Of a stretch of DNA of 64,000 nucleotides, positions 7,461 through 38,269 are shown piece after piece. The number at the start of each line of letters is the position of its first letter. The first letter of the stretch is position 1. Source of the DNA: Botryllus schlosseri (lineage: Eukaryota); contig CM119372.1 of the NCBI GenBank assembly GCA_051294905.1, positions 38,318,001 to 38,382,000 on the forward strand. Reading direction: 5' to 3'. The position numbers were made by a program, and so were the translations under genes. The notes under the pieces were generated by a model. The model had not been told where the DNA came from, did not search any database, and saw only the letters and a program-made list of their open reading frames with translations.

Positions 7461-7872
7461 GTGTTTCCATGAAAATAACAAGACATTACACATCCAGTAT
7501 ACTTCCAATCGACATCGCGCTGGTTGATGCGGCGCTGTGCACCATATAGATGCGGCAATCAATGCGGTGATGATGTGGCAATGGATGATGTGGCACTATA
7601 GGCGTGGCACTTGATGATGTGGCGCAGATGATGTGGCAATGGGTGTGCTATAGGTGCGGCAATGGGTGGATGATGTGGCAAGGGGGTGTCCTATAGGTGC
7701 GACAGAAAAACACACATATTTGACCGTATGGTCTTAGTATGAACCGACATGCATTCGACTTGTGGAAAAATGTGTCGCACACTATTTCACCGAGATTACA
7801 ACCCTTTCACGGATATTCGTTGGTGCTATCGATACGGTGAACAGCACGTTATGTATAGCGATATCTCCACAG

Positions 7873-8148
7873 TCAAATACGCGAACCATGCACAACTATA
7901 TACCCCGACTTTCGTTGAATATTCACGACACCAACAAATCTGTACATCTCCTTTCCCTCGACATCAATGATAGAATCCTCATCCCAATGCGCAGTACGAA
8001 TGGTGGGTTCATCGGGTGTAAAATCCAAATCAAATGACACCAAGGTCTGCTTTCTCATTTTCAATATTTCCACCACCGCATCTTGTCTGTGTCTTAGCAC
8101 TACCGTGTGAGGATGGCGAAATCTGTGGGTGGTAACACGGATGGACAT
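7873..8148 (-). CDS. Small hypothetical protein (~91 aa, MSIRVTTHRF...), possible residual element ORF; left-arm copy
   Basis: Intronless ORF from an ATG, protein-like composition, same translation in both arms; no recognised family. Confidence 0.35.
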   Translation of the reverse strand: MSIRVTTHRFRHPHTVVLRHRQDAVVEILKMRKQTLVSFDLDFTPDEPTIRTAHWDEDSIIDVEGKEMYRFVGVVNIQRKSGYIVVHGSRI

Positions 8149-11100: not shown

Positions 11101-11758
11101 AATATATTATTTGCGATGATACGAACCCGTGAAGTGCTCAAGTAGCTTTTCGTAGGATATAGATGAAACTGACAACACTCACCAAGACCGCTGGTCCACT
11201 GAAAAAAGTACATTGTAGCAGTAAAGTCCTACTAAAGTACAAGAAGTAATGATTTCCCAGTTAGTTGAAAAGTAAGTACTGAAGGTATAGTTTGCTGGAA
11301 AAAGCGAAAAACTCTGAAATCGAAGTAGATGCAGTGTAAATAGGTAATCACTTCATTAAGTATAGCGCAAGCAGGCCAAACCTATACTTGAGTACTGCAA
11401 AATGTACAAGTACTTCGCTATGTTCTCCCTCCACGTAAAAAGTGACTAGGTTTTAGACTACTTTATCGGTACTCGACAGTTTCAGTTTTAGATAAAATTT
11501 GGTAAGACTTTAAATTTTAAAGTAGTTTGAGCTTACGTTTGTATCACCTTGACAAGTAACATTATCAGACATGAAAATGATACTATCACTTAATATAGAA
11601 GTTAACACGCGTCAATGTGCTTCGGAATTCACGAGAAATTGCTTACTAAGAGAAGTATATTCTTGTATACACAATAGCGAAGAGAATCTTTAAAATGTAG
11701 TAAGCAGGCCGATGGGTATTCGTTTAGTTGTATAGGCATAAAAAACATTCCCGCGCGC

Positions 11759-11800
11759 TCTTAAACAAAACACTTCCTAACCCTACCACCTAATACTAAG
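11759..11800. other. 42-bp non-palindromic spacer at the palindrome axis
   Basis: cccgcgcgc|tcttaaacaaaacacttcctaaccctaccacctaatactaag|gcgcgcggg. Confidence 0.95.
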
Positions 11801-14800: not shown

Positions 14801-15405
14801 GCACACTATTTCACCGAGATTACAACCCTTTCACGGTTCACAACTTGATATATCAACTTCACAGGGTAGTTCGGATTCTCAGGTAGACTTGAATCGTGAT
14901 CCGGATCTCGGAATATAGTAAAATCGGGGTATGTAGTTTAATTACTCACTCACTACTCTATATGTTGGTGGTGGTCATACCCTGCAAACTTTTTTTGGTG
15001 TGAACGTAGTGTTTCACCTTACATCAGTTGGTTCAATGTATGTACCGGGTTGTGAAAACTGTCGCTGTTTTGACTATGTGTCACAATCAATACTAAATAC
15101 GAGAATTCGTTACTCGTCGAAACGCCGCAGTCAGACATCGTTAACAGCGATTCCGTGTATGGCAATCTTGAGTTCAATTGCGGTTTTGTGATGTTAACCA
15201 AGCGGCTGTGTTTCTGCGGTGTGAAGACTGAATTCGTGTTGTTTCCCCGCAAGAGTGCGATGTCTATTTCACACCTAGAGCAATTATAAAACGCATCTTC
15301 GAAACTTTTGGTCTAGTTCATCCGCTTGCATTTCGAAACGGACCATCACGACAAGACTCTAACCCACCACATCCGTGGTTTCAGTTGATCATATCGAAGA
15401 ATATC

Positions 15406-15681
15406 ATGTCCATCCGTGTTACCACCCACAGATTTCGCCATCCTCACACGGTAGTGCTAAGACACAGACAAGATGCGGTGGTGGAAATATTGAAAATGAG
15501 AAAGCAGACCTTGGTGTCATTTGATTTGGATTTTACACCCGATGAACCCACCATTCGTACTGCGCATTGGGATGAGGATTCTATCATTGATGTCGAGGGA
15601 AAGGAGATGTACAGATTTGTTGGTGTCGTGAATATTCAACGAAAGTCGGGGTATATAGTTGTGCATGGTTCGCGTATTTGA
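15406..15681 (+). CDS. Small hypothetical protein (~91 aa); right-arm copy
   Basis: Mirror of 7873-8148. Confidence 0.35.
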   Translation: MSIRVTTHRFRHPHTVVLRHRQDAVVEILKMRKQTLVSFDLDFTPDEPTIRTAHWDEDSIIDVEGKEMYRFVGVVNIQRKSGYIVVHGSRI

Positions 15682-16093
15682 CTGTGGAGATATCGCTATA
15701 CATAACGTGCTGTTCACCGTATCGATAGCACCAACGAATATCCGTGAAAGGGTTGTAATCTCGGTGAAATAGTGTGCGACACATTTTTCCACAAGTCGAA
15801 TGCATGTCGGTTCATACTAAGACCATACGGTCAAATATGTGTGTTTTTCTGTCGCACCTATAGGACACCCCCTTGCCACATCATCCACCCATTGCCGCAC
15901 CTATAGCACACCCATTGCCACATCATCTGCGCCACATCATCAAGTGCCACGCCTATAGTGCCACATCATCCATTGCCACATCATCACCGCATTGATTGCC
16001 GCATCTATATGGTGCACAGCGCCGCATCAACCAGCGCGATGTCGATTGGAAGTATACTGGATGTGTAATGTATTGTTATTTTCATGGAAACAC

Positions 16094-17124
16094 GGTATTT
16101 GATATGTTCCATTGTCATAATGTCCTACACCTGTGAACCAATCTTCAAGTTGCGCATTCAATGTTTAGCTCGGTAATTCCGTTATTAAAGTTGAGTATGC
16201 ATAGGTACGTGCTACGCTCCCGCAAAGGTCGGTATGGAACTGCGTTAGTTTAAAAGTTGTTCAATCATGAAATGCGTAACAAAATTAGACATGGTGCATT
16301 GTCATAATGTCTTACAACTGCGTAGCGAGTTTCAAGGTGGGGAGTCGATTATTAATATGGTAATTCCGTTATTAAAGTTGACTATGTATAGGTACGTGCT
16401 ACGCTACGGAAAAACAGATTTAGCCAAAAGTCTGTATAGAACTGCGTTGGTTTTAAAGGTGTTACATCATGGAATGCCTGAAGAAATTTGGTATGGTGCA
16501 TTGTTATTATGTCCTACAACTGCGTACCAACGTTCAAGGTGAGAATTTAATGTTTAACATGCTAATTCTGTTACTAAAATTGACTATGTATCGGTATATG
16601 CTATGTTCACGAAAAACAGATATGCGTAAAAGTCGATATTCGACTGCGATAGTTTCAAAGGTGTTCCATCATTAGATGTGTGATGAAATTTAGCATGGTG
16701 CATTGCCATAATGTCCTACAACTACGTATCAAGTTTAGAGTTGGGATTCAATGTTAAGCGTGGTAATTCCGTTATTAAAGTTAACTATGTATAGGTACGT
16801 TCTATACGCTCCCGCAAAACAGATGTACGCAAAAAGTCGATGTAGAGCCGCGTTAGTTTTAAAGTTGTTCCATTATGAAATGCGTGAGGAAATTTGGTAT
16901 GCTACATAATCACAATGTCCTACAACTACGTACCAAGTTGCAAGGTGAGGAGTCACATATTAGCTTGGTAATTCTGTTATTAAAGCTGACTATGTATATG
17001 TATACGCTACCGAAAACAGATTTAGGCAAAAGTTGCTATAGAACTGCGTTAGTTTTAAAGTTGTTCCATCATGAAATGGTTGATGAAATTTGGTATGCTG
17101 CATAATCACAATGCCCTGGAGCTC
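16094..17124. repeat. Mirror copy of the ~200-bp tandem array (right arm)
   Basis: Reverse complement of 6430-7460. Confidence 0.85.
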
Positions 17125-20100
17125 ATTTAGATACGTTTTTAATGTAGTTTCACGTTCTAGTTGTTTTGATGTAAGGAAAAAATCATTCGATAACTCGATA
17201 CAACTAGTTAACGCGCGTTGATGTAACTTTCCTCATTTGTATGCATAGCCTACGCGCAATTGGTTACCGAATTTTTCGATTAGTTTATATTCCGTATTTT
17301 ATTTAAAACTGAAACTGTTAAGTACTACTTAAAGTGTTATAAAATGTGAAAAAAGTGTACAAGTAGAATTATTACTATGTCATGAATAAGTAATTTACAA
17401 ATTCATACGATTTTTCTTTTTGCGTTCCGGGATAAAATGTAATTTTTCTCTCTTTTTATTTTTTATTTTTTCAATAAAATTAGTATTCATTTTACAAAAA
17501 CGTCGTGTAAAGATAAAGTACTTGTACATTTCGTAGTGCTCAAGTATAAGTTTTTAATGTATTAACTTGATAAAATTTTCAGAATAGAGACTTTTGCGTA
17601 AAGTCTGTCTTGCATTTAGTTGCCAGCTCTGAAAGAAAGCAAAGTTTGTGGTATTTGCACAACATCGAAAATCGATAAAGTAGTCTAAAACCTAGATACT
17701 TTTTACGTGGAGGGAGTACATAGCGAAGTACTTGTACATTTTGGAGTACTCAAGTATAGGTTTGGCCTGCTTGCGGTATACTTAATGAATCATTCCTGTG
17801 TCATAAACACTTGAGTAGTTGGTGCGTGTAGACAAAAACCTACTTGAGTACATAATTTTTATTTTCCATTAAAATTAGTATTCATTTTACAAAACACGTC
17901 GTGTAAAGTTAAAGTACTTGTACATTTCGGAGTACTCAAGTATAGGTTTTGTTAGCTTATTATATGCTCAGTATATTATATGTCGAGAATTGTGGAGCAT
18001 TTATGCGGGTCTCCGGGGTGCTCTTCATTGAGTGTCCGTGTTGGACGATAAGTTTAATTCGCAAAATTAGTGTGTTCAAATCAGGCCTGTTGCCAATATA
18101 GTGATGTCGCATTAGCCCTAAATACACATAATAGAATATCAAGGAAAAGTATCATCTAACGTATAATGAATGTTATTTATTTCTCGGAAGCAAGTTATTA
18201 TCAAAACATAGTGGACAAAATTATCGCAGAGCAATACCGATTTTGCGTAAATTCCGTTATGCGTCTGACTACGTTACTAGGGATTATGTAGTTAGTTAGG
18301 AAATTAGGAGTCCTATCTTCCTAATCGGTATGGAACAACATCAAAAGCATCACAAAGCAATATCGACTTTTGCGTGAATTCTGTTATGCGTTTTACTACG
18401 GTAGTATGCGCACCTGCTTACAGATGTCCAGACGTGAACTTTCTACTATATTCGCTCCTAACATTATAGCAGCACCCGACGCAGCTTACATTATTACGTT
18501 ATAAGACGCCGGCGGCGTTTCACTGTCAGTTTAATCACCTTATTCTAGTGACATGAAAAGGACTGAATCGTATGAAATGTGGTCACTTCAAGAATCACGA
18601 TTTTTCATTAAGTAGTTATGTTTCTAGGCTACTTTTACTTCTATTTCACGGGTTTTCATAGAAATCTGCTTACTTTTATAACTTTATATTTTGTGAAGTA
18701 GAGAGTAGTTTAAGGTTATGTTTGTCTAACCTTGGCGAGTGCTATTGTCACACTCGATCACCATCTTCAGATCATGGCTATCTCAATGATGTTGACTAAA
18801 TTTTCGGCTTCAGAACGTGTTAATTAGACCTAATCGTTTTAACGCTGGGGTTCGCGTACAGGCATCGATAGAGTTTGTATAAATAAAGCCCTGCGAATCG
18901 CACGCCTACGGCTATAGTTCGTTCGATTATTTTCACCTTGGGATTCGCGTATATGCTACTAAGCTGTTACGACTTTAGAAAATTCTACAAGACTATTCGG
19001 AACGCGCACATGCGAGTGATTTGTTTCCGTAGCTCCGAACTGGAGAATCGCTTGCCTGCGTCTAATGAAAATAAGTCGTAAAATGTGGAGGCTGCAGAGA
19101 CAGTAACTTGTATACATAAAATCAAGTTTAAAAATATGGACGGATGAGTTATCTCTGACCAATAGAGTAATATAACCGCCTATAGTTTAGTGGGGTATTG
19201 CTATAATGTATATCCAAACAATCGTTGCAGACTCTGAATGTTACCTAGGTCCTTATCACAAAAAATCATGCATCAGAAGCGTAGGGGTTCATATTATCAA
19301 GTCGCAGCGCTCAAAATCGCATTTTATATTAAGTAATTAGTGATGATGTGTAAAATTTTGATATTAATAATATTATCCGGAGAATATAACCTTACATAGA
19401 CATCATAGTTTTCGCATTTATGTATAATCTGAATAGGAATTTAAATACATAGTCCTAAATACACATAATAGAAAATCTGTCGATTCTAGCCAAGGTAAGT
19501 TTTGACGCGGCAATCATGAGTCGTAAAATGTGGAAACTGCAGAAACCGTAACTTATACACATAAAATCAAGTTTAAAAAATATGGACGGATGATATTAGT
19601 CCTAAATACACATAATACAATATCTGAGAAAAGTATCAAGATGCGGCAATCAATGCAGCGATGATATAGCAATGGATGGATGATGTGGCACTATAGGCGT
19701 GGCAATTAAGGCGACGTGGCGTAATTTGATTGGCCTGCACGAAACCAATCCAACTACACTACTGTGGTATATACGATTTTGAGAGTCCTCTGACGACCAA
19801 TACCATTACAGCAGGGTTCGCCACTCAAAACGGGTCGCGGGCCACTTTTCAGATTTCGTAGAGGCCGCGGATCGCAAGCATGCAATAACGAGACAAAATA
19901 GACCACACAGTTTAGCAAGCACGCTTTTAAAACTTTACGTCAGTGCAGCGCTATGCTTTCTAACGCAGGCGATGTGCGTATTTACCATATGCCTGGGCAC
20001 AATGATTCGAGTACTCGAATCTGAATCGACTAATAATTCTAAACATTCGGGTCGAGTAGTAAAATTTGAATTTTTTGAGTACCCAAAGTATACGTTCCAT

Positions 20101-21548
20101 CCTAGTGACTGGTATTGCATCAATGAGAATTAAATTTACGATGTGATAGCACAGAACACTTTATTGCTGGTATCATATCAGAGCAAACATGTATTATAGA
20201 AGCTACAAATTACCTTTTCGGTGTACAACGGGCATTTTATGCTTTTATGTAGCACAGAATCGGTATATTTGAACTTTCCGTGTCTTTCATATAATGTTAT
20301 GACATTATTATGAGAGATGTGGCTTGCAGACCCCGTTTTAAAGAGCTACTTTGTGACACTTTTTGTTGTGATGTGCTAAAAGTGCTCATAATTATCACGA
20401 TTTAACAGAGTTGACCTCACCCGTCGGTTTCTCCGGCGAGTTTCGCGTTATATCGTATGCTAATCTTCTTATAGCAACGAAGGCATCCTCCAAATCCATC
20501 GGGTGGATCGTTGCTTGGGGTTTGCATCGGGGGTCGATCGACTATGCGGTCATAACAATCCATGCAGCAAGATATATACCATTTGTAAAATAGCCAAACG
20601 GCAATAACTGATGCACCAGCGCCGAGGCCACAATTCCGGCTAATTTGCCTGTTTGACTGATATTCCGCTGAGAAAGGTGCTGAAGAAATTAAATCATAAT
20701 TTGCTTCACTTCTACGTAAATAGGCTATATTTAAATAATTTACTGCCACATTATTTATCTTCAACAACGACTACAGACACTGTTTTCGGCTGTTTGCTAG
20801 TCCACTAATGCAACATACCAGGACCTAGGTTGTAGAAAATATTGTTGGATCATGTGAATGAAGACAGCTCATTTGTAGTACTTTCTCACTGATGTAGCCA
20901 AACTATTGCATTTTTTAAAATTATTTCATTTGTTCCTCGGGTATTATTGGCATTGACGCAAAGTGTGGAGGTCTGTTGCTGTTCCCGGTTCATTGCAAAA
21001 AGCCATATTCATTTTCGTTGTATTCATCAAAACCTACTCGAATATCTTTAAATAAAATCACACGTCACTAATCCGAATACAAACTGTAGGAAGTATCTGT
21101 ATAAAATAACATGATTTCACCGAGTATTCGAAGTAGCTTATTTTATCAATAGATGCACCAATGGCATAGTCGACATTTGAGTCGCATATGTAAGCTTGGA
21201 CAGTAGCTGAGTTATTGCAGTTGAAAGTTCTGGATTTGCAAAAAATAGCATTGACGGTGGATGATCCCAGAATTAATAAGGAAAAAAGTTAAATAAGTCC
21301 GCTTCTAAGGGTTGGAATTGAGTCAAATTTGTTTTGCATCGTTTTTGAAGACATCTCAACAATTTCATGGGTTGACAGAAAAATTTGAATAATATTTCTT
21401 CTTAATTCTTCGTAATAAATAAAAAAGATTTAAAATTGGCTCTGCTATTCTACTAGTCTTATCAAGAATTTATCCAAGGCAATTTAAATATCCGTTAATG
21501 TCGATATAGCTCACCCAATAAGACGTCATCGATATTGGAATGAAGTAT

Positions 21549-21657: not shown

Positions 21658-21969
21658 AAACAAAGCAAAGTCAGAACGAAGAACGTTGATTTAGTGAAAA
21701 GTAATACGTTTATGGATATATATTATAAGCGTGAGTGAATTATGTTTTGTTTATGTTGTTAAGAACCTGTAAGTTGATTTAGTTGGGCGATCCACCAAAA
21801 ATTCGGCACATCTCAAAGGTTTCCATCCATAAATCAAAATGGCGTCAGTTTCTCTGTGGTATTTATTAGTGGCAAGAGGTGAAGGTTTCACTTACGACGT
21901 TCTGACGGCAGAAAATTCGAGCAATTGTAATCTCCGTATGGCTTACTAGTAGATATGCATGCAAAGTTG

Positions 21970-24900
21970 TCACCATCCAATGCAAGAACCATGAGCCATA
22001 CCACAGTTGTAAAACTTGCCTGTAAAATATCAAAGAGCCATTGAAATCTCGTGCATCGGATCTTCAGTGGAATTTTTCTGTTAACATTGTACCATCAAAT
22101 TTAAGCAAAATCTTACCCATAAGAAATTCGTGTTACCTTTACAGCCATGATCCACGTAGCAACATGATATGTCTCTAAAAACACATATTCTGTCTTAGCG
22201 AAGATTCGCACCATACATGGGGCAATATAACATTTAGGAACGCATGTTGTAGTGTAGTTAATGTATTTTCCTGATAACATAATATTATTGTTCAAGGTTT
22301 GGAGACCGTTACTAGTGATAATGGATAACGTCGTATCATATTGGGGTGTAGATCATCACGTTATCTTCCTTAACGTATAATTGGAGAAACATTTTCATAT
22401 TTGGCATTACCTGTGATTTTGATATCTTTCGGCTAAATCAGCCTCGTATTGCGTACTAATATCTTTATCATATGAGACGTTACAGTTGAGACCTTTCAAG
22501 CGATACTCGGCAAACTGTGAAACATTTGCGGGGTAATATATGAAGAATCAAATTTTCATTATTAAATTCTCAAATCGGTTCATATTATTAGATTACCTTT
22601 AATACCAATGCTCCGCTGTTAACTACACTATGCTGTTGTTCACGGGGATGGTTAGATGGTTCTTCACGCTGTCGTTCTTCATGGAGTAAATTGGATAAAA
22701 CCTGCCAGTAACAACGTTGAGTCTCGTGGTGGTCGCAAAACCTCCTGATAAAGCAAATGTTTGGGTTTCATTGGAAAGATGACGCATAATGTAAAAACCA
22801 TAAAATAGTAGAACTGTGGTAAAATGTCACGTATTACGTAGACTTACCGGAAATTTTCTTTAACAGTATCTTCATACTTCGTTACGTCGCCGGTAGGATC
22901 GTAAACTGATATTTTAGCACGCGTAAAATCAATCTCCTATAACACGAAAGAGTTTTTTAAAGTACAGGTCACATACATAATCGCAAGACATTATCTACCA
23001 AGAATATCCAATGATTCTCAACAAACAGCGAGGTGATAACTCGGCATCGTATGATACGACGAATCTGTACAATAAATCGCTTGTATTGAAAGTTATTCGC
23101 GTGACGTATATCCCAATATACCAACGACTTGTCGGATTTTTCGTCGAATTTGCCTTCGCGCCACCATGCATTTGCGTAACAGAACGGAACGTACACATCC
23201 GAGTCCTATGGAAGTAATTATATGCTAGGGTTACCATACGTCCTCTTTTAAGAGGATTTGTCCTCTTTTTTGACTTTTTTGAAAGCGTCCTCGGAGGACG
23301 CCCTTTTGTCCTCTTTTTTGAGATGTTGTCCTCTTTTTTGAAAATTTAGGTCATATTTAGAGCAAAATGCGAGTGATATGCCGTCAATTAGCACAGCAGT
23401 GACGCTCAAACGGTATTTTGAGCTCTGAGCGAAAAGATGACCTTTTTTTTTTCTAGTCAACCGCCCAGCAATGTGGAGGAAGAAACGGTATTTTGGGCTC
23501 TGAGCGGGAAAGTTGACCTTTTTTTTTTTAGTCAACCAATCACAAATTGGGAAAAGTTCACCGATTTCTGAGAATTCTTCTCCGGTTTTGCAAGTCTCAA
23601 ATTTCTGAAAGACTGTCCTCTTTTTAGATTTCCAAAATTTGCTCGTAGGCATTTAAAATACTAAGGGAATAAGCGTCGTAACCATGACCGTAACTGCCGC
23701 ACCCCAGAACCCCCATTCGGGGGCCGAGTTCGACGACGTCACGATGCACGAAGACATATGAATTTGGGTCAACATTGTTCTCCGAGAAGTGGAAAAGGAT
23801 TGCCCTTATGTTGACCGTAAACTTTGATATAATATGTCTAATTGTCCATAGGTGGCTAAATGGCTGGCGCCGAATCTTCCTGTCATCGCAATCTGATCCC
23901 CACATGAAAATTGGCATGCAGCAGAGACAAAATATTTTCCAGTGAAAAAATACCAATTTTAAATCATGTGCTTAGTACGTTTAGGCGATTTCAATATCGT
24001 TTGACTATATAGCGGACATGAACTCACGAAATAACAGCATGTAACGAAGTGATCGTACCAAAGGGCCCACTCTGATATGTTTAATTATAAATTACGTGCC
24101 CTAAATCTCTTTCAGCTCTACCAGTAAATCTGACTACGTGGGCTGACTGGATAAAAAAAATGTATCAATGTATATTCAATTACCGAAATCATCGGCCTAT
24201 TTCACTATCAATTACATAAAATCTCATATCTAAACGCGGTTAGCCTAGGAAAACGTGCCGACTGCTGAGTATACGAATTCTCTGTGTTAAACGTATTGGT
24301 TATAATGTTGAGCCCGATGGGAGGTCAGGGGGCGAAGCCCTTCAGAAGTTTGGTTTAGCACCCTATCGGGAGCCCAAGACCAACGTTTGGGGGGGAAGAC
24401 GAAGTACTGTTACGGCCCTGGTCGTAACACCAATGGGTTGCTAGCTCAAGTCTGACCGACATCGACTGCAGAGTTCCTACTGAAGAGCTGCAGCTTCGTC
24501 TAGGTATCTCCTCACCATCTGGTCCCCGTCTGCGGTGTCTTAAGCCCGTTCATACCCGATTTATGAAACTTTTCCCGTACCATGCTCCGAAACATATGAT
24601 AATTGCATTCGCACAAACCAACATAAATTGATATACAAAGAGTTAATGAAGAGACGACAATGAAGAGACAATCTCTGTTCGGATGTGCAACAAGTAGGCT
24701 ACCAATTTAGGCCAACAAATACCGCGTGTAAAGACAATTTGTTTTATCGTTTTTATTTATTGCAAATTTGTTTCTGTTTGATCCGAAATCGCTTTTTAAA
24801 GCGGGTAAATGTTGCCGAGCAGTTGTTAGTGAATTCTTCACCTACAAATCTATAACGTTCAATCGAAACTATATATGGGTTTTGTGTCCAGAATTCACCC

Positions 24901-27900
24901 GAAATATTCCCATGGGTTCACGTGTATTCAGAATCTCGCTGAAAATCGTTCAGGGGTGCCCAGAAATCGTTTCCCTAGTGTTACCCCGATCTGATGTTGT
25001 TTTATACTCCCCCAACGCTCTAAAATGGAGGTTTTCGACCTTTTTCTTACCGTACACCATCTCAAGCGTCTATATTTATATGATTTAGTTGCGTACCAAC
25101 AACTTGGCGAGAAAATCAGTATTACTCCAAATGTATGTAGGATCGTTGACACGGCAGGACTATCAAATATGTCGGCTCCGAAATTTAGCAACAAGTGCGT
25201 CCCACGAGCTATTCCGCCCCTAATTAGTAGTAACACTAACAAAACCAACTTTAATGTGATGGTTGCAATTGTTTGTTCTCCACAAGCTGATCTAGGTGTG
25301 TTTCAACTGGGTCAAATGAAGCATAAAGTACTTATATATTCATTCGTTCTTACATTCGAAAACATTACGTAAACAATCTGTAAAAACTGTAATTTTACTT
25401 AAGAAGAAATGCATTTTCTGCGTACAGCATGAAATGCCTACGCGTACCACAGATAGAGAAAGCTGCTATTCGCTTTACAGGTCCATTTCTAAAATTTACT
25501 TGTAGAATCATGGGATGTCGGCATATTTATTTTAGACTACAGAATGGTGCGCCAATATGATATCTGACCCATGAGAACCGATATGCTAATTTGTGCTCCA
25601 GTGAAATTTAATTTGAATCCACTCTATTGATATCGAATGATTGTAATTTAAATGTTATACTCACCTTTCCGAAGTGAAATATGAGAATATTCATGATTGC
25701 GTTCATCGTCTGCAAGTAATGTGTACAATGTGAACATATATTTGTGGATATTCGTCAGCATCAACAATTAAACCATAGGTTCTTAACATTTACCAAATCG
25801 AGGAACTCTTACCCTAATCTTCAAGACTTCGGTGTTTTCGTAGAGTCATAAAACAAACATCTACCGCATTATATATCTAAATACACATTAGGGTGGTCCT
25901 TAAAAACGATTTTCTGAAAGTTGTTGGTCTGACCCTGCCAAAATGTTCCTTTTGGGCAAAAAACACCCTGTGTAAAATTTTGTTGATATTGATTGATGTT
26001 TAGAGGTGGCTTATAATGGATCCGCAATTCTACCCATATTAGATATAGAGCACATATAGTCACTGCATAGTTCAGTGGTTCTCAACCGGGGGTCCGCAAA
26101 GCAATTTCAGGGGGTCCGCGAGACCTCTAAATTTGCAAAATGAATAATAACCTAGTTTTCAATTTTTTTTAATTGGGGAAAGCATCAGGCAGTTTTCCTC
26201 CACAACTGGTAAAACCTCATTAGTCACATCATCAGAATAATCGTCTGACATGAAATATGCTACTATGAAAATTCATTTTAATTGCCAAATTGCCAATAAC
26301 CTACTGATACAAACATATTGCTGTAAGAGACGTTGTGTTGGGGTTTGTGGGGAAAAAATAAAAATATGGAGATAGTAAGATCAATCAGGTTGACTTCGTA
26401 ATCTTTGAGAAACCTTTTCGATTTAAAGTTGTCAGTGTCATCAAATTATAGTGGACAGTCGTTTAAAATGAAAACTCCTTAAGTATTTTACATAATTGTT
26501 CGCAACAAAGGAATTTAAACCTCGTCACGAAATCCATTTTATCCTGTAATATACATAACCAATATTCCAGAATACCGTCAAGATGAGATGCTGGATAAAA
26601 ATGACTAGGCTGAACGTGATATTTTCATTACCAATATATTTTTTTCATTATGGTGCCATGAATGTTGCGAACACACCAAAAGTGCCGTCGGGAACGTTAT
26701 AGTCGTTAATATTACATTAGCCTCCATCTATCTTTGTGTAAATGGATTTTCGGCCCTCGTTCATATCAAATCGAAGACGCGGACTTTCAAGACCAAGTAT
26801 ACTGAAATACCGCTGCAAAATTAGCTTGGAAATAATAAAAGGATACCCAATTTCTACATAAATAGTATGATATTATTTTCAAGAAATTTCATTTTGTTGC
26901 TGTTTATCACAAGCTTACAGTTCATATTTTAACATGACTGATGGCGGTCGCATCATAATTGAGCCAAATTAGAACTAAAACTTGAGGGGGTCAGCGAGGG
27001 TCCGTCACGGTCAAAAAGGGGTCCGCGAAGCCAAAAGGTTGAGAACAACTGACATAGTTGCTATTGGGTCAACGCTTGAAAGCCTGGATTACCTCGTCTG
27101 GGTAATAGCTGATCATTGAAAGTGGTGCCATGATGACCAATATTAATTGATTTTGCCAATCAAGTTCTGCTTGAGGGTTTTGGGCACATTTTTGCGGAGG
27201 TCGGCAACAACCCGACATGCAAACTGCACTTGCTTCTCATTTTTTGTGAGATGGGCATAAACATCCTCAATCATTGCGTGGGACGTTCTGTGTGGTCGTT
27301 AGAGACAAACAATGTGAGTGTGAAGCTATTGGCTGCAATAAAACTAGACTGCCCATTCTATTGAGCTGCCGGATATTCAGGAAAACAATCGGAAAGACGC
27401 AAGTCTTCTTAAAATAAGTGTTGCATTCGTTGTCGATTTAAATCTTCTTCTTGAATGTGTTTGGAGTTAATAATAACACACTCCAATAGTTATTCTTCCA
27501 CTTCCGTCTCTTTTATAGCAACAACTATCATATCGTTGGTGACCTTGTCCAGATCGTCATCAAACAAGGACGCGCCAATCAACCCCGCAGACGTACTCCA
27601 CAGTTGCCCTACCATCTTTCTCACTGTAGCTTTAGATATGTCTACAATATTTGCTTGATACTTCTGCAGCTGCTTCCGAAGCTTAAAACCTTCACATTTA
27701 TGTTGGCTGTTGCCCATGCTACAACGTGGGTGCGAAATAGAGTATGCACAGTTCCTGCAACCCTCGATGCTAGCTTGATAACTATTTAAACTGTGAACGA
27801 AACATCCAGACCTTTGAAACTTTAGATCACTTTCGCCATCCATAGATCTTGGTGCATGGCTTCGGGAGTTTCAAAGAAGATGCCTCGACAAGGGACAACG

Positions 27901-30576
27901 CCATGGAGAATAAAGGCCAGCTCCAGCAGTTCTCTGTAATGGTCACTCATCTGAGTGACTTTCACAGTTGTCTCCAATACCTTCGCCATCTCATTTATCA
28001 TGTCAGCCACAGCATCGGACGTATAATGATCAGTTGACGTGTCCTCAAATGTAGTGTGGTCAATACGACGTCATCTTCTTTGAAGCACTTGAACAAGAGA
28101 ACATCTGGAGCAGATGAATTGACCAGGGCTTCCGAAAAGACTGATGCACGCCAAGCATCTTGTCTAAAAGAATGCCGTTTTTAGTGCCCATTGGTATCGA
28201 AGCATATGCCGAGGATCTTTCTCTTTAACTCCCCGTATTTCCGAATAGAAAATATAGCCTCAGCTTGTGCTTTTCATCACAAGCTGAGGCTATCTTTTCT
28301 ATTCTGAAATACGGGGAGTTAAAGAGAAAGATCCTCGGGATATGCTTCGATACCAATGGGCACTAAAAACGGACCTAGATGGTAACTTTGAGACTTAGTA
28401 GTAGCTGTGATTGACCAGTATTTGTCACTAGCATAGCCAGCAGTCAACAGTATCCATTCCAGTGACATCTGGGATTAGTTTGCCATCCCCGTGCACAATG
28501 AATGGAAACTGTGGGTCTAACTAATATTTAATTTGTTCGGAGATGATTCTACTATTAACTAATAAATGAACTATTAAAGCGTGTAATTATTAACTTGAAA
28601 AACATTCGGTAGAAGACTTCATTCAACTTTACGACGAATAAATCACCAATTATTTTAGAGAATTCGCGCCTTTCAGATGTTTTTCTTGAATATCCGGATG
28701 CTTAGAAGTAGGAGGAACCTAGTTTAATTGCCGCAAAATCTTTTATCCGCACATTGGCTGTCACCAGCTACCAGGCTTAACGTTCCATTGCCTTATGTGA
28801 GGAGTTTTCTGGCCGTATCACAAAGAACAAGGAGCAACTGCATTTTCATTTAGCGTCTTTGCTTACCAACGCGAAAAAGCTCCCTAACACCCTAAAGCTG
28901 ACCTCACTTGGTGACGGCAATTGCTATTGGCCATGATTACACCCTAGCCACTGAGCAGCTAATACCCACGCGACGGAATCCAGGCTTAATCGTTGGTCCG
29001 AAAGCAGCTATAGAAGTGACTATATGTGCTTTATACTGCAAATATGTAGAATTTTGGATCCATTGAGCCACCTCTAAATATTAATGCAACATTTTGGCAG
29101 GGTCACACCAACAACTTTCCAAACTTCGTTTTCTATGGCCTACCCTAATACACATCTTATACAATGTTACATAGATCACTGCTGCATGAAATTACCTATG
29201 CAGCAACACCATTAAAATTACATTTTCACACAAAACGAAAACATTACAATAAATTTGTATATTACAAATCTATATGACTTCTGCTGTTCCTCTTCAGAGA
29301 CCAGTTCAGAAATGCGAGGCTTCACTTTCGAAAGTGTCCTTGTGTTGTTCGATCGAAATGCAGCAGCGTGATACGAATTATTTCAATACATATGTGCTTA
29401 TAAAAAGTGGGGATAGAATTGTCATTTCAGACGGACTGCATATCGGTTTTAAGCCCCAACTTCACGTACGTACGTCACAGCAGATGAAGTAACGCCACAA
29501 CAGTCATAATTCGACTACTGATCGGGCCTAGTTACCTCATACCCATAATTGTCAAGACGGGGTATCATCACAAACCATATGTATGAGTTTATTGTGTGTC
29601 TTAAACTTCGTGGAACCCCTCAAACTGGCTCGCAGAACCCCTAATCTTCCGTGGAACACCATTTAAGAACCCCTGAACTAAAAATTTGCTACAAGTAGGG
29701 TTGCATATAACACAAAATCAATTTAAAACAAACATGTTTAAATGAGGACCCTTGTTTAAAACATGTATTAATTTAAGCCACAACGTCACGAATATTCAAT
29801 TGTGACATCATTGTGGATTGACATTGATAATTGAAAATATAGAGCAGGGGTGTCAAACATACGGCCCGCAGGCCGCATCCACCCTTACCGACCCCCCCCC
29901 CCAGACTGTTTCATCCGACCCGCGACGCGATTCTGAAAATGGCTCTATTATCTGGTACATTTTTACCAAATGCTGAGATTAATGATCCCTCAAGACAGAA
30001 AATGTCGACGATATTCATAAGCGACATTATAGCAATCCGACAGTGTTGTTGAAGTTACGCTGTTGTCACCATCAGCAACATTGACACCCAACGGCGAGGA
30101 GGCAAAAAAGTGCACAGCCAGTTCCCAGTTTTATGGAAAAACGGAACACAAAGTAGACTGTAGTTATGAGCAGAAGTGAAAACGTCAGTTAGAAACCGGT
30201 TTATCCATGCTACATAGAAATATAATTATGACACAAAAATATACTGTAAATATCTGTGGCTGCACGCCGTCTGCGCTTATGTCTTAACAGCTCCTCGCTC
30301 TCCAGAGAAACCAGAATCGCGATATAAACTTCATTTCAACGTATGCGTTAAACGGTTAAATCGCTTGTACACCTCACAATGCACACATGGTACTATATAG
30401 TCAGATTACAACTAAAACAAAGCAATCATAGCAATATGCCAACCTATATCGTCAGTGAAGCCGCTGTTTAGCAGGTTTCAACCGACCAATCATGTTAATT
30501 TTGTCAATTCCATTGTTCGCGAATAAAGGTGTTAATAGAAGACAACCCTATGGTCCGTGATATACCGTAATTATTT

Positions 30577-30617
<41 letters not shown>

Positions 30618-31554
30618 CTTGATATAATTAAGTATTCAAGCGAAAAACAAGGCATGGACTTTGAGGTAACATCTTGAAATCATTTGACTCAGTGCTTCCC
30701 AACCTTTTTCGACTCATCGCCCCCTTTTCAAGCTCCACACCGATCATCGCCCCCCTAATTTTGTGAACCGAAAAACTGTAATCACCGGCGGGTTGACTAA
30801 AAAGAAAAAAAAGGTCAACTTTTCGGTTCGAAGCCGAATTTTACACTTTTGCAAATAAATTTTCGTGGGTAGACAAAAAAAAAAGGTCATTTCTCCGATT
30901 TGACTCCAATATAGCCGTTTTACCGCGTCATCGCCCCCTTCGCTATTTTCGCCCCCTGTCGCCCCCTTTGTCCATTTTCGCCCCCCTATCGCCCCCTTCG
31001 GCATTTTCGCCCCCCTAGACCGCCAAATCGCCCCCTGGGGGGCGATATCGCCCACGTTGGTAACCACTGATTTGACTGGTCCGGCCCGCGAGTGCTCGTA
31101 AGGTTCGAATACAGCCCGCGACGCAAGTTGAGTTTGACTCCCCGAATATAGAGTAAATATTGCTCCTTTAACGACATATCTGTACCAAAACTGTAAAACC
31201 GACAATTTCGCGGGTTCCAACCTTCCCATATCGATATACATCGGCTATATTGGGTAGCAATTGTCCGTAGGCTCACACAACATGTTTTTTGGAAAGTATG
31301 TACACAATTACGGCATAATTTTACAACTTATAAAAATACAATTTTATTCGAAGGATTTTGTGTTAAAACACTGTTTAAAACATGGTTTAATCAAATAGTT
31401 TTAAACAACTATTTGTTGTAAAGGCAACCCTAGCTACAAGCATTTACCTCTCGATGCAGCCATCGTGAATTCGTCAAGTAGTCCGTTTCGCTATTTTGAC
31501 CAGCCTCCAGACATTTGCGCTCCTTACTTTTATTCAACAAGGGCCTTTGAGTCT
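21970..31554 (-). CDS. Spliced Ulp1/SENP (peptidase C48)-like domain gene with catalytic Cys->Ser. Exons: 31448-31554, 25665-25709, 23122-23205, 22999-23064, 22848-22936, 22597-22744, 22411-22514, 22137-22174, 21970-22019
   Basis: All junctions are GT-AG and phase-compatible. Product ...SRWLHRETMNAIMNILIFHFGKDSDVYVPF...NHWIFLEIDFTRAKISVYDPTG...EQQHSVVNSGALVLKFAEY parallels the SENP motifs WLNDE, HW, YDS and QQ..DCG. The 57-bp intron 23065-23121 is in frame and stop-free, so it could be retained. The 3' end is less certain. Confidence 0.8.
23226..23640. mobile_element. hAT-like MITE fragment (TAGGGTTACCATA end) with gtcctcttttt subrepeats
   Basis: Starts tagggttaccatacgtcctc; right end degenerate. 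Confidence 0.5.
23683..24420. mobile_element. hAT MITE inserted into a SINE copy
   Basis: TIRs catgaccgtaac / gttacggccctg; exact 8-bp TSD gtcgtaac at 23675-23682 and 24421-24428. Confidence 0.9.
24421..24520 (+). mobile_element. Fragment of a tRNA-derived SINE
   Basis: acaccaatgggttg...tctgaccgacatcgactgcagagttcctac resembles the reverse complement of 62100-62195. Confidence 0.55.
25889..29147 (-). mobile_element. Decayed hATm-type DNA transposon
   Basis: Long TIRs starting tagggtggtcc; exact 8-bp TSD atacacat; minus-strand transposase remnants (DHYRELLELAFILHG...AMHQDLWMAKVI). Confidence 0.85.
26073..27051. mobile_element. hAT MITE nested in the hATm element
   Basis: TIRs cagtggttctcaacc / ggttgagaacaactg; TSD gcatagtt/acatagtt; the empty site is seen in the paralog at ~41865. 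Confidence 0.9.
29845..31145. mobile_element. hAT (Charlie-like) MITE
   Basis: caggggtgtcaaac / gtttgactccccga; TSD atatagag; contains (AT)n at ~30578-30615. Confidence 0.85.
30690..31069. mobile_element. hAT MITE with cgcccc subrepeats
   Basis: cagtgcttcccaac / gttggtaaccactg; exact TSD atttgact. Confidence 0.9.
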
Positions 31555-31650: not shown

Positions 31651-32197
31651 GAATAGTATATTCATATTGAAATGAACCCGAATATTTTCGGCTGACACTC
31701 GTCAGGGGTAATCGTCTCCAACTAGTTGAGAATTCGAAAGAACAGCGTATATCAACAATCGTAGCACAATATATGAACTCACCAGCACGAACTGTCGAAT
31801 ACGAAAGCGTTCAATGTACTATTTTTAGATGATACACGAACTCTTTTTGTTGATACAGCCTTGGCTGGTGTATTTTGATAAAAGTCGACTCCAAGGCACA
31901 CAAATGAAAGTGTGAGCGACCCTTTCCGAGTATGCGAAATCTGTCGTCTCGATAATTTTTCGCACAGGCGGGATTATCAAACAAGTGTTTGCCAATTGCA
32001 GAATTTATGGCCTTCGATTGTTCAGCATCAATCTTGAGCGGATGAGTTAAGGGTGAGCTTTTTACCGAGCGTGTTCTAATGAATCTAGGGACATGCTGAT
32101 TTATGCGTTTCTGCAAGCGCTTTGACGTTCTTCCCACGTAGCCACAATCACAGCGACACTTGAATTCGTAAACTACATTGCTTTGCAAACAAAACAA
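31651..32197 (-). mobile_element. 5'-truncated Penelope-like retroelement (GIY-YIG endonuclease and pLTR)
   Basis: ORF 31811-32197 SNVVYEFKC.C...YVGRT.KRL..RI..H...SAIGKHL...LES.FI...P is a PLE-type GIY-YIG domain. Confidence 0.9.
31676..31709 (-). ncRNA. Minimal type-I hammerhead ribozyme in the Penelope pLTR
   Basis: Minus strand reads ACCC-CUGACGA-GUGUCAGCC-GAAA-AUAU-UC-GGGU: core boxes, stem I and palindromic stem III. Confidence 0.75.
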
Positions 32198-33519
32198 TCC
32201 GCGACGTCATCCGGAAAACGGCAAAACTTAAAAGGGGCTCCGCGCTTTGCATATGCTGCCTATCACATCATAATCTAGCCGCCCATGGCGTGTCCTAGTC
32301 TGGAAAAGTGGACTTTGACTTTTTCTCAGCTTTACACCTGTTTTAGCAGGCCACTATTGAAGCTTTCTGGACAAAAGACATGGAATATATTTGTAGCTTT
32401 TTAGAAGTAGTATTTATATTTCTCTTTCAATCCCCAGTATTATACCTCGCGTTTTTATTAGTTTCAGTTCTCTTGTCTGGATAACATGCATGTTGATTTG
32501 TTGAAGTATAAAAGCAAGTGTGGATGGGTGGGTATAGGGTATTATGGCGCTCAGCAACTAGGGCTTTGTGCGCCATGCCTGAGTGGGGGGTTGATAGGGG
32601 GATCACATAATCAATTAATGGGTGTACCAAGTGTAGTAATGCCTCTATTTTCCGAAAATAAAGCTACGCTATATGGCATTTATACGATCTGCCATATTTT
32701 TTATCAACGTTTACTAATCGCGCAATGTTAACACCGATCCGACACCACTTCTCCATGTTGATCTTCGACCAAACTACGGGCCTTATAATATGAGGGCGGG
32801 CGCATTAACATGATATTTTCTAATTCGATGTGTTCGAGTAAACATATGATTAGTATCGCATTTCCATATCAATGCTACCATTTTCATCCCACGATGCGCA
32901 CGAATGCTTATGCTGTCGAAAATTTATAGATCCTGGGATTCATCAATATGAATCAAGCTCTGCACCTTTCGCATAGCTCAATTTGCAGCTTTTGACAATC
33001 TATGCGAACGAATTACGATCGTTTTCACATCTACTTACTTACTTGAGTAGATTTAAAGTCAGTCAATTCTACTTCTACTTCAAGTAGTTTCAAGCTGCTT
33101 TTAAAAGAACTACTTTTACTCATACTTGAATAGATTTTTGCGTCACCACTTCTACTTCTATTTGAGTAGCTTTCTTGACTACTTTGACCACCTCTGGTGG
33201 GGTCTCATATTAAAGATAAATCGGGAAAAAATTTTGACCGCAGCCATTTTCATCAGAAAATTACCGTAATGGAATTGCAGCTGAAAGATTATCAAAATTT
33301 TCCACATTGTACTCTAGCTGAATAAATTTATATGGTGCCGTGGCCGCGCTTCTTAACCCATTGCAAATTTTCTGGTACGACCTCTGCATTGTTGCACTTG
33401 GTCGACCCAGTTTCTCGACGCGACTTCTATCTTCTAGTCCTATTTCTTTAGGTATTATTCGATGAATATCCCATTAAATAATGATAATTCATTCTTCATT
33501 GGCAGGTACAAACTACTAT

Positions 33520-35313: not shown

Positions 35314-36286
35314 CATTACTGGCGGTTTCCTTCGGAGTTGTCGTTGCCGGATAAGAAGCATTTTCTAGTGCTTCCATTTCAAGAAAGTCCGTGTCATCTG
35401 TTGGGAATATTATGACAATATCGTTAAATATTCTGTCTGACAAAAACAAGTTAGATTTTATTTACTTTTATGAACGCTTCCCGGAGCTGAAGTTATCGGC
35501 TGTCTCTGCGTTCCTTGCTGCTGCTGATGTTCTTGTTCATTTTCATGATCTGTTGAAAAATAAACCGATAAATCTATTTTTATGTTTTGATTGTTAGGGA
35601 GAGAAATATGGATGGAGGAGTATCTCACTTGAGGTATAGAGACGAATTTTCTAACAGGGAGGACCATTCCGACTATTGTTTATGTCAGTGATTCCCAACG
35701 TGGTCCATATCACCTACCAGCGGACGATTTTGAGAATCAGGGGGCGAAAATAACGAAGGGGGCGATTGAGAGATGAAAACGTACGGAGGGAGCGAAAACG
35801 TTAGAATGGGTATATTGAGCTAATAATCACGAAATGTACGTGAAAACGGGTTGTTATGGATATGCATCGAAAGTTTACTCAATAACGGGTCAACTCCCAC
35901 TGATTTTCCGCGAAGACGGATTTTTCCGGAGTCAACACAGCAAAATGACCCTTTTTCAGTCAATTCACCAGAGATCAGAATTAGGTGCATATTATTTCCG
36001 GCCGATAAGTTCTCTTTTTCGGTTCCGAAAATATGGAGGGTCAGAATTTTGTACAGCTTGATAAGGACGCCTTGAGTCGAAAAAAATTAGAAACCACTGG
36101 TTTATATCGTCATTAGGATGCAACTCTAAGTGTCATGTTTCAAACTAAACATCTTCAAGATGTTTGTGTAATATACTTTTGTATGAAATCCCTGTCTTAC
36201 AATACAATACCTGCTGCATGGACTTTATTGCGCGTCCGGCTACCGAAGCGTTCAGATGCCAAAGAGGAAGGAATGGGACGAGACAT
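35314..36286 (-). CDS. Putative 5' exons (36211-36286 with ATG, 35466-35549, 35314-35397), possibly of the Ulp1-like gene; low-complexity N-terminus
   Basis: GT-AG, phase-1-compatible exons: MSRPIPSSLASERF...DHENEQEHQQQQ...NDTDFLEMEALEN; the link to exon 31448-31554 is not resolved. Confidence 0.45.
35686..36099. mobile_element. hAT MITE related to 30690-31069 (opposite orientation)
   Basis: cagtgattcccaacg / gaaaccactg; TSD gtttatgt/gtttatat. Confidence 0.8.
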
Positions 36287-36609
36287 CGCACTAATGCAAA
36301 TGCCATATGGGGCAATATAGGGGCTGCTACATATTAAGATTGGGGATTTTCAAATATCATATTTTCGAACATTTCCTTCCAAAATTCACAAATATAGAAA
36401 CACTACTCCGCGTGTAGCGTATTTTGGTTTATTTTTTTGCTGCGTTTGAAGAGGATTTCATTGATAGCGCATTCACCCAAGTATTCTTGACTACAGTGTC
36501 GGTACCCAGTCAACAAAAGCGTATATATTCAATGCCGAACCAGGCGAAGACAGTGCAGGAGAGAAGTGAACGCAATTGTTTTGACACTACAGTGAGGCGG
36601 CACTTTTGA

Positions 36610-36790
36610 TGTACAAAAACCAATCGCTCTCGAATTCAAAAGATCGATTGTTCTCCTTTCCATCGGTCAGCCGGGCAGATTGGTGTCAGCGTTATTAACC
36701 AATCAAATTGCGCATGATTATCACGCGGCTTCACCGTGACGTCTCTTCTGACGTTTCTTCTAACTAGCTTTGCCAGGTTCGTGAGTAGTT
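36610..36790. promoter_or_regulatory. Candidate, possibly bidirectional, promoter
   Basis: CCAAT/ATTGG boxes at ~36620, ~36679 and ~36699; CRE-like TGACGT twice; plus-strand donor-like GTGAGT at 36781; just upstream of the minus-strand ATG exon. Confidence 0.35.
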
Positions 36791-38269
36791 GAGCGTGGAG
36801 AGATTGTGATGTCATAAGTCATCGGATGTTGTTTACCGTTGCACACTTGAAGTTTGAATTATCGTCCGTACCGGCGAATTGTATTTCCGAGATCATAGCG
36901 ATGGAAGGGAATATGAATGAAGTTCTTCGTTGAGATGAGTTGAGCAAGAGATAGTTCGGGTTATTATTGAAATTTAAACATGCTTGCTTAGATGTGTATT
37001 GGTAGTCAAATGGTGTTTCGAATAGCAGATCAGTCATATTACACTGTAATTGCTTTTTTGCGTTAGGCTTGTAAAATAGGACTTGATATGAATGCTGACT
37101 TTGACTTTTCCGTGGCCTGAAAGGTCAGGTTGGTGGCAGTGAACAGCGTGATACTTGTCAAGTGTTCTGAACGTAATACGTATTACCGGTCCGTTGATAT
37201 TTCAATGCTAAACCGCGGAAGTGTGTAGTTAAACCCTCGCCGAGTTTTGACGTGTTATAGTTATGGCTTTGACATCATTTGTTAGTGCATTCATGAATGT
37301 AGGCTATGTATATTAACGGAACATGGGATATGCTCAAACCATCTATTGTCTCTGTCTGCAATATCTGTGACTGAATTTACAATCGTTGATGTTCGTTACA
37401 ACGGTTGGCATTTCAACTGTTCAGCCAAATACTATATCTTGTAATAATTTCTGATTAACATTTGTGATACTCATTTCAGTCAACCTACGAGTTATTTTGT
37501 TGCTATAGGTAGCCTTTATTTTACAACTGGAGACTGAAGCCATGAAGTGATTGCGATATGCCCAAATATCCGTGGGTAGAAGTCTGATGGTGAATTGAAA
37601 ATACTGCAGCGTTGGCTCTAAGCTTTGGTTCAACCTGCAGCGACAATGTCCATGATCAGCCGACTATCACTACTAATGATATCTGGCTGACAGTACATCG
37701 CACGAATATGAGGCCAGTGGAATTACCCAGATATCAGAGACCAGTCCAAGCCTATACTTGGGATATATCATTCACAATTGGGCTCTGAATGAAGTTAGCG
37801 TGCCACACAGTGAGCTGGATGCTGATGGTAGCTGTGCGTTGCCTTCATACTATTCTTCCCGCCAAGACACTTGTTTGGCACTTGTTTGGCACTTGTTTGA
37901 TAAACCAGATCTTATCTGTATTTCAATTCAAGAGCAGCAATGGTTGTATCAAACTTTTCCCGGAAAGAAGATCTCTCTGTATCTCAACTGAAATCAATGT
38001 GTCGTTTTATGCATTTCATATAACTGTCTGTTTGTATTTGACCGGTATTTTGAATGTATGCTCGTGCTGGATTTTATTATAACTAACACGACAATGAAAA
38101 TATATTGTCAAATTGTGATGTCTTGCAACATAAGGTTAATATATCTGCCAGAAAGCAACAATGATTCAGGTAGCGACAGGGTTACTAGCGGTTGTAAGCT
38201 GCAGTAGCGAGAGGGTTGATCAACGGCAACAAAAGGGTTAATGTGTCTGCGGCTGAAGTGCGAAAATTG

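Follow-up and report, generated by a model that had tools for sequence, protein, structure and literature searches.

A transcribed chimeric gene of Botryllus schlosseri joins an Ulp1 domain without its catalytic cysteine to CALHM-like membrane exons

Results

The window analysed here, a 64,000-nucleotide stretch of the Botryllus schlosseri genome to which all unprefixed positions below refer, was found to carry on its minus strand a gene of 13 exons with a 443-aa product (exons 1–4 and 13 predicted), in which a spliced Ulp1/C48 protease domain with serine at the nucleophile position is joined to CALHM-like membrane exons. On balance, we favor the interpretation that this is a young chimeric host gene for a membrane-anchored, catalytically dead pseudo-protease that acts as a protein-binding module. 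A Mutator-like transposase gene would have supplied its spliced Ulp1/C48 exons, which became joined to the last three CALHM-like exons at a phase-2 intron, leaving the transposase exon and the front half of the channel out of the hybrid, which would then have been duplicated to give the copies on C2 (the window) and C3. The product, if translated and inserted into a membrane, would begin with a low-complexity N terminus, followed by a dead C48 fold, a hairpin of TM3, loop, and TM4, and a tail rich in Cys. By analogy with CALHM topology, the dead protease would face the cytosol, most likely as a membrane-tethered binding module that no longer has canonically bound SUMO as its target.

Transposon Ulp1 domains are well known, whereas their fate is not; here, one such domain appears to have been separated from its transposase, to have lost its activity in two copies, and to have stayed in frame within a new membrane protein. 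As a natural C48 pseudoenzyme, the product would be open to experimental test, and the gene would illustrate how two unrelated intron-bearing parents can give rise to a new one.

Expression and exon structure

Four runs (X5, X9, X10, and X23) were compared with positions 21700–25900. Spliced contigs from two studies, X5 (1702 nt) and X9 (793 nt), were found, and five GT-AG joints were listed; two further joints, 22999/22936 and 22848/22744, follow from bin depths, outside the joints listed. Splicing of exons 5–12 was observed, and exons 1–4 and 13 are predicted to lie in the same transcript. X5, X9, and X10 carry no library record, and none of the listed data sets containing the sequence is recorded as RNA; we infer that these three are RNA because introns are skipped and exon 9 is single-copy in the genome search. 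The raw RNA reads of X23, of which about 6% were examined, gave zero depth on the exons. Expression is low, with contig depths of 7–13.

Exons 1–3 are of low complexity. Exon 1 (36211–36690), predicted from splice signals and frame, would contain the 5′ UTR and an ATG at 36286; its 5′ end is approximate, having been fitted to the length of the X5 contig, and no match to this exon was found in the C3 paralog. The predicted transcript start is overlapped by a dispersed repeat (36504–36800, identified by genome matches) that occurs at 39 other places with 85–94% identity (40 candidates scored of 1143). Exon 2 (35466–35549), which would encode a Gln-rich low-complexity N terminus, and exon 3 (35314–35397), acidic and Thr-rich, are predicted from splice signals and frame only. 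The C48-like domain starts in exon 4 (31448–31554), which includes a W-L-H-R motif and Arg116 and has the phases of the C3 paralog exon and of the first Ulp1 exon in the Mutator-like copy L066. Exon 5 (25665–25709), 45 nt long as in C3 and L066, is connected by joint 23204/25664 in X5 and X9 with exon 6 (23122–23205, 84 nt; joints in X5 and X9). The catalytic His is encoded by exon 7 (22999–23064; joint 23064/23122 and depth fit) and the catalytic Asp by exon 8 (22848–22936), which is also present in C3 and for which the depth in X5 was 8.11, with 8.14 expected. Exon 9 (22597–22744; X5 and X9 pieces, and alignment) encodes the oxyanion Gln and the Ser, and the C48-like domain ends in exon 10 (22411–22514; joints 22514/22597 and 22174/22411). 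Joint 22174/22411, present in X5 and X9, is intron 10 and the point of the Ulp1-to-CALHM fusion; it leads to exon 11 (22117–22174; joints in X5 and X9), the first CALHM-derived exon, encoding a Cys-rich loop before TM3.

A prior sequence-only reading had proposed a nine-exon gene at 21970–31554. Nine exons can indeed be joined in frame to the TGA at 21970, but the last two of them were not confirmed by RNA; the gene is larger than proposed, and its 3′ end had been placed wrongly. Donor 22117, and not 22137, was used in three of the four runs. Because the listed joint uses donor 22117, exon 12 (21896–22019) is read in the other frame. The stop at 21970 is therefore bypassed, and the open frame runs on through this CALHM-like TM3 exon and then probably enters the TM4 exon (exon 13, 20417–20679). 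Three candidates were rejected: an ending at donor 22137 and stop 21970, which has a PHD-like look, because the RNA uses 22117 and relatives keep the other frame; an exon at 24146–24096, which is skipped by joint 23204/25664; and a last exon at 21096 (a 365-aa model), which is without a homologue, whereas 20679–20417 has one. X10 reads through the 21896 donor.

A C48-like domain without its nucleophile

The codon at 22615–22617 reads AGC on the minus strand, and alignment places this residue, Ser255, at the nucleophile position. The X5 and X9 contigs also carry AGC, and because they cover 22597–22743 with 0 other letters, the Ser is not an assembly error; the codon lies outside the coverage of X10. 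The sequence-only reading was correct on this point, and also in finding that the catalytic His (His178, NHW), Asp (Asp195, VYDP), and oxyanion Gln (Gln249) are kept and that QQHSVVNSG aligns without gaps, here to QQMNGSDCG in the host SENP1-like protein encoded by this genome (L002), with whose His and Asp residues His178 and Asp195 align. The order of motifs (W-L, H-W, Y-D, and Q-Q-x4-N-x-G) is that of SENP1/Ulp1 (MEROPS C48, PF02902), at about 20–26% identity to L002. In contrast to SENP1/Ulp1, the Cys is replaced by Ser, Arg stands at the Asp451 position, and a membrane hairpin is added. Exon 9 also contains a 12-residue insertion directly before the oxyanion Gln, beside the active-site loop.

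A match to the C48 fold was recovered by hhalign with a probability of 97.6% (E 3.6e-12) when a 4-row family alignment was compared with 19 intronless C48 domains; one 45-nt L038 exon is out of frame in the family alignment, with the catalytic columns unaffected. With a C48 profile built from sequences of the same genome, the spliced protein reached 21.2 bits and the best of 500 shuffles 7.8. Pfam C48 was found in none of five single exon pieces, and the locus is absent from the 66 matches of a six-frame PF02902 search.

It had been suggested that the domain might be a Ser-His-Asp variant, that is, an active protease or hydrolase built on a C48 fold. The Ser is exactly at the nucleophile position, and His, Asp, and the oxyanion Gln are present, but AGC is one base from TGC, an engineered Cys-to-Ser Ulp1 is inactive (PMC3216068, available text), and in the C3 paralog the nucleophile codon is deleted in frame, yet the His and Asp are kept. 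We therefore regard this activity as highly improbable. Binding or protection of SUMO conjugates, the other suggestion, is made less likely by the present data. A natural substrate trap binding or shielding SUMO or another ubiquitin-like conjugate at a membrane would be in keeping with the retention of the His, the following Trp, the Asp, and Gln249, and with the trapping of SUMO conjugates in yeast by Ulp1 C580S, as given in the available text of PMC3216068. However, in the same source, D451N abolishes trapping by C580S in yeast, and the position of this SUMO-binding Asp of the W-L-N-D motif (numbering inferred from a 1euv match and from N450/D451 as named there) is occupied by Arg116 here and by Trp in C3, with Asp in L066 and L002. 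The insertion beside the active-site loop and the outright deletion of the codon in C3 also count against a trap, which we consider distinctly unlikely. The absence of the SUMO salt-bridge Asp from both copies argues against a SUMO trap and Ser catalysis alike. The designation as a pseudo-protease, in contrast, is supported: the reading frame has stayed open, and an in-frame deletion has removed the same residue from the closest paralog.

Origin of the protease exons

As judged from sequence comparison, the domain appears to derive from a transposon and not from a host SENP, a relationship that was missed in the sequence-only reading. Intron positions in the protease part coincide with those in the spliced Ulp1 domain of Mutator-like and TIR transposons of the same genome, in which the nucleophile is Cys (TGC or TGT) in nine of ten copies, the tenth being unreadable. 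Exon lengths differ from those of the Mutator-like L066 by multiples of 3 in six of seven exons, the remaining one being interrupted by a 1-nt break in L066. An ORF upstream of the Ulp1 exons of L065 is MULE-like by ESM features (0.91), although a MULE domain was not found in L065 by Pfam scan, and P0002, a relative of this ORF (35% identity), bears a Cys-type C48 domain. A second family is carried by elements of 3.8 and 4.5 kb, and both copies checked have exact target duplications of 8 bp; a 775-aa ORF inserted in the element of L038 matched neither L065 nor this gene. The weakest genome match, L040, was rejected as a relative, having no matching exon series. In a tree of 19 of the 30 C48 loci retrieved, in which the L066 row loses its frame at the 1-nt break, the branch of the window gene and C3 was unstarred (81/86).

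C48 domains occur on Mutator and Ginger1 transposases (PMC2836005, available text) and, like the present domain, are intron-bearing; the nearest relatives in this genome either follow a MULE-like transposase or are part of TIR elements that have 8-bp duplications. In contrast to such domains, the nucleophile is lost here, membrane exons are fused, the gene model contains no transposase exon or ORF, and at least two copies with this fused architecture, rather than a dispersed family, were found. The transposase piece had no match inside the window among the 59 genome matches listed, and no inverted repeat pair spanning the gene was seen among the 25 longest of 84. Shared intron positions likewise reveal a transposon origin for the host genes Gin-1 and Gin-2 (PMC2836005, available text), whereas here what was retained is the protease add-on rather than the transposase. 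Pseudo-DUBs also preserve a dead protease fold; the available part of a review of these proteins (PMC10919355) names no SENP/C48 pseudoenzyme. Among titles and abstract openings, with few subscription journals, no description of an Ulp1-CALHM fusion or a natural C48 pseudo-protease was found. Protein database searches with exon 9, the exon-12 alignment, and a 44-position profile of exons 6–7, as well as the ESM Atlas, returned nothing, and no orthologue was found in other species; these queries were short pieces, for which absence is a weak result.

The CALHM-like C-terminal half

The C-terminal half, whose membrane-protein homology was likewise overlooked in the sequence-only reading, aligned to the CALHM locus L058 with a score of 96, the best of 2000 shuffles being 54. 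Exon 12, supported by RNA, encodes the CALHM-like TM3 and an outer loop with an N-C-S sequon (Asn347), and it has the same phase-1 donor as L058. Its best PF14798 match (E 0.1) was below the cut-off; two of its relatives gave E values of 0.012 and 0.015, and two others gave no match. No CALHM was found in the PDB with an exon-12 profile. The sequon, N-C-S/T, is present in all five exon-12 relatives, and CALHM1 is glycosylated in the loop that matches the exon 12 outer loop (PMC7439498, available text). Counterparts of exon 11 are present in C3, C10, and C2 neighbors. The predicted exon 13 would encode TM4, a Cys cluster, the tail, and the stop; it is collinear with L058 and has an open homologous exon in C3 with the same acceptor and a near-identical stop position, and it gave neither a PF14798 match nor a two-sequence BLASTP alignment to L058. 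Hydropathy is marginal, with 19-residue means of 1.63 and 1.27 for the helices of this gene and 1.80 and 2.79 for those of C3; no other hydrophobic segment reaches 1.35.

TM3, an outer loop with Cys and an N-glycan sequon, and TM4 are common to this gene and CALHM/FAM26 channels (PF14798), whereas the dead protease replaces the N-helix, TM1, and TM2, exon 11 being spliced straight to the last Ulp1 exon. The gene product alone should be unable to form a known CALHM channel. It is conceivable that it acts in CALHM channels as an accessory or dominant-negative subunit, co-assembling through its TM3-TM4 half with full subunits and bringing the dead protease beside the channel: all of these shared elements are kept in both copies, and CALHM genes are present in the genome (19 PF14798 exon matches). 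We nevertheless consider this unlikely given the missing front half, the dependence of both conserved disulfides on Cys residues of the absent first loop (PMC7439498, available text), and a tail that is short and about 34% identical between the copies. A more specific proposal is that the dead, transposon-derived C48 fold replaced the pore-lining half of a CALHM subunit and gave rise to a fast-evolving accessory subunit, co-assembling with large-pore channels or residing in the same membranes and using the dead active-site cleft to link them with a partner in the cytosol. This is quite speculative and probably incorrect; if true, a single protein would combine a naturally occurring C48 pseudo-protease with a CALHM derivative that is not a channel. 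At three other sites with CALHM-like exons (C2:38.247 Mb, C2:38.538 Mb, and C10:15.527 Mb), Ulp1 exons were looked for within about 7–8.5 kb upstream and not found.

The C3 paralog and selection

The C3 paralog has the same fusion. All 10 of the shared exons are open, all differences in exon length from the window gene are multiples of 3, and 163 of 342 residues are identical. The dN/dS between the two was 0.70 (bootstrap 0.53–0.93); this value is close to 1, and selection on the amino acids is weak.

Slow decay of a functionless transcribed chimera, in which the loss of the Cys would be simple relaxation, is another unlikely explanation. It would account for the low expression, the predicted start inside a repeat, the broken appearance of neighboring CALHM-like copies on C2, and an exon identity (64–85%) that is no higher than the intron identity (73%). 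However, the dN/dS interval excludes 1, and only 1 of 20,000 neutral simulations (224 codons) ended without a stop in either frame. Furthermore, the short introns differ by 14 gap openings in five introns, whereas the shared exons contain no stop or frameshift in either copy.

The C48-Like Domain and Its Nucleophile Position

The spliced protein of the fusion gene was compared with a C48 profile built from 19 intronless C48 domains of the same genome. It was found that the match scored 21.2 bits, against 7.8 for the best of 500 shuffles, and spanned the W-L, H-W and Y-D motifs, with the Cys helix outside the match; a profile-profile alignment reached the Cys helix too (97.6%, E 3.6e-12). The sequence-only reading had placed a serine at the nucleophile, and this was borne out: the codon at 22615-22617 is AGC, and the profile-profile alignment sets Ser255 without gaps against the Cys of QQMNGSDCG in the reference row, L002. 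This locus encodes a normal SENP1-like protein (PF02902 E 9e-50; 268 bits to human SENP1). The host thus also possesses a Cys-type enzyme of its own. Two intronless C48-like frames, L027 and L031, gave QKNTSDPNG and no D-C-G motif in a motif scan, and are possibly other Cys-less C48 copies.

The same reading had proposed that the domain binds or protects SUMO/ubiquitin-like conjugates or, less likely, works as a Ser-His-Asp variant. A SUMO or Ubl trap has a precedent in Ulp1 C580S, which traps SUMO conjugates and requires Asp451, with D451N abolishing the interaction (PMC3216068). We infer that Asp451 is the D of W-L-N-D. This position is Asp in L002 and in the Mutator-like transposon copy L066, Arg in the window gene and Trp in the second copy of the fusion, the C3 paralog, and the window gene has a 12-residue insertion ahead of Gln249. 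Canonical SUMO trapping by the window domain is therefore unlikely, and we give a trap of either kind a low probability. Serine catalysis is less likely still, to the point of being very improbable, because the nucleophile residue is missing from the C3 sister copy.

Transcripts and the Corrected Gene Structure

Four sequencing runs were compared with the stretch 21700-25900, and spliced junctions were found. The joints 25665/23205, 23122/23064, 22597/22514 and 22411/22174 are present in X5 and X9, and 22117/22019 is present in X5, X9 and X10. The bin depths of X5 closely fit eight exons (5-12), which takes in two further joints that follow from these depths. X5 and X9, which come from two studies, each have one spliced contig across 22597-22743 with zero other letters, an identity that may reflect closely related animals. 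The X10 contigs miss the Ser codon, and one runs unspliced from 22018 to 21732; X23 (raw RNA, about 6% read) gave zero signal over the exons.

The earlier nine-exon model stood in part: GT-AG joining reproduces its end at the TGA at 21970, but the donor used in the RNA, 22117, puts the following exon (exon 12) in another frame. Read this way, exon 12 yields a hydrophobic stretch, and the top Pfam match of that stretch is the CALHM family, at an E of 0.1 (below the cut-off). Its relatives matched Pfam CALHM at 0.012 and 0.015 in two cases and had no match in two others, and CALHM was absent from the matches of a PDB search with exon 12. The true CALHM locus L058, which is above the Pfam cut-off, has a same-phase donor at the same place. 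A predicted exon at 20679-20417 joins in frame after exon 12. The C-terminal half that includes it is collinear to the exons of L058 that encode TM3 and TM4, with a score of 96 where the highest among 2000 shuffles was 54; single-exon homology tests of this last exon alone were negative. The window helices are weakly hydrophobic (1.63 and 1.27). The resulting model comprises 13 exons encoding 443 aa; exon 4 is backed by homology, and exons 1-3 are predicted purely from splice signals and frame.

Diverged CALHM-like copies were also seen at C2:38.247 Mb (L056), C2:38.53 Mb (L057/L060) and C10:15.527 Mb (L055), with no Ulp1 exons nearby. Two of these copies, both within 200 kb of the fusion gene on C2, flank it and appear broken.

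Transposon Relatives of the Protease Exons

A genome search with exons 6-7 found nine places, five of which (L034-L037 and L039) are copies 93-95% identical. Two copies of this type examined in full (L048:6275-L049:115 and L050:6085-L051:623) are TIR elements of 3841 and 4539 bases, with inverted ends, exact 8-bp target duplications and a spliced Cys-type Ulp1 gene inside; no long transposase frame was found in them. Another of the nine, L038, is one member of a family whose other copies show 93-96% identity, and in this family a long ORF precedes the Ulp1 exons. This ORF was negative in a Pfam scan, and ESM Atlas puts it with MULE transposases (0.91); its database relative P0002 (1905 aa) combines a Cys-type C48 stretch with PHD and USP domains. 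Ulp1 domains occur on Mutator and Ginger1 transposases (PMC2836005). An element of 3.7 kb whose inverted ends measure 240 bases (L061:717-L038:431) is inserted within the L038 transposase gene; its 775-aa frame is intact and matches no Pfam family.

The Ulp1 exons of L066 are 119, 45, 84, 75, 88, 106 and 107 nt long and exons 4-10 of the gene 107, 45, 84, 66, 89, 148 and 104, with phases that agree except at a 1-nt break in L066. In a tree, the window gene, the C3 paralog and both transposon types fall into a single starred group (100/99) that excludes the 19 intronless C48 domains, although half of the L066 row is out of frame there. Nine of the 10 mobile copies have the Cys, and the tenth, L065, is disrupted ahead of the motif.

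The C3 Paralog and Selection

The C3 paralog (C3:26.62-26.65 Mb) has exons 4-13 in the order and phases of the window gene. All 10 exon length differences are multiples of 3, stops are absent, and the two proteins share 163 of 342 aligned residues. The dN/dS was 0.70 (0.53-0.93); the five short introns had 73% identity and 14 gap openings. Neutral simulations (224 codons, substitutions only) left both frames open in 1 of 20000 runs. Taken together, the intact exons, dN/dS, intron divergence and simulations indicate a reading frame under selection while its residues change fast. A functionless decaying chimera is improbable, given these simulations and the frames kept open in both copies. The nucleophile site of C3 is one codon shorter (YNL-AL, compared to VNSGAL), and the Cys may have been lost in one event or two.

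Predicted Product

The TM3-TM4 loop of CALHM1 is extracellular and glycosylated (PMC7439498), and the N-C-S/T sequon is present in all five exon-12 relatives. By this topology and the conserved sequon, the predicted hairpin would leave the inactive protease, like the Cys-rich tail, on the cytosolic side. We somewhat favor a membrane-tethered binding module as the product, ranked above a CALHM accessory subunit, which is doubtful, and above the decaying chimera, the SUMO or Ubl trap and the serine enzyme. The component parts are already known, and so are the steps: a domain captured from a transposon, exon shuffling and the formation of a pseudoenzyme. The combination of a dead C48 domain with a CALHM half was not found in the literature at the level of titles and abstracts, or in protein databases queried with short pieces.

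Genomic Setting

The assembly comprises 495.5 Mb in 219 contigs, and the window, C2:38318001-38382000, is repeat-rich with about 40% GC. The introns, together with a SENP1-like gene, mark the DNA as that of an animal. A giant near-perfect palindrome (1406-19763, center about 11780; a 12.5-kb block at 99.3% and a 1.75-kb block at 99.5%) terminates about 650 bases downstream of the fusion gene and is either a real foldback or an assembly artefact. It contains a duplicated 149-aa frame (7873-8322 and 15232-15681) with no match in Pfam, and a hAT dimerisation fragment lies at 4968-5393 on the plus strand (E 1.2e-6). A high-copy repeat at 36504-36800 overlaps the predicted transcript start of the fusion gene and may be its promoter source. 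Two copies of an interspersed element (27179-29086 and 41998-43661) are 86-91% alike, one of them within intron 4, and a GIY-YIG fragment is at 31811-32206 on the minus strand (E 1.5e-4). Broken frames at 56046-58153 match DUF1759 (E 2e-8), which is typical of Pao/BEL retrotransposons. Inverted satellite-like arrays of 107-252-base units at 38370-40824 resemble a foldback element.
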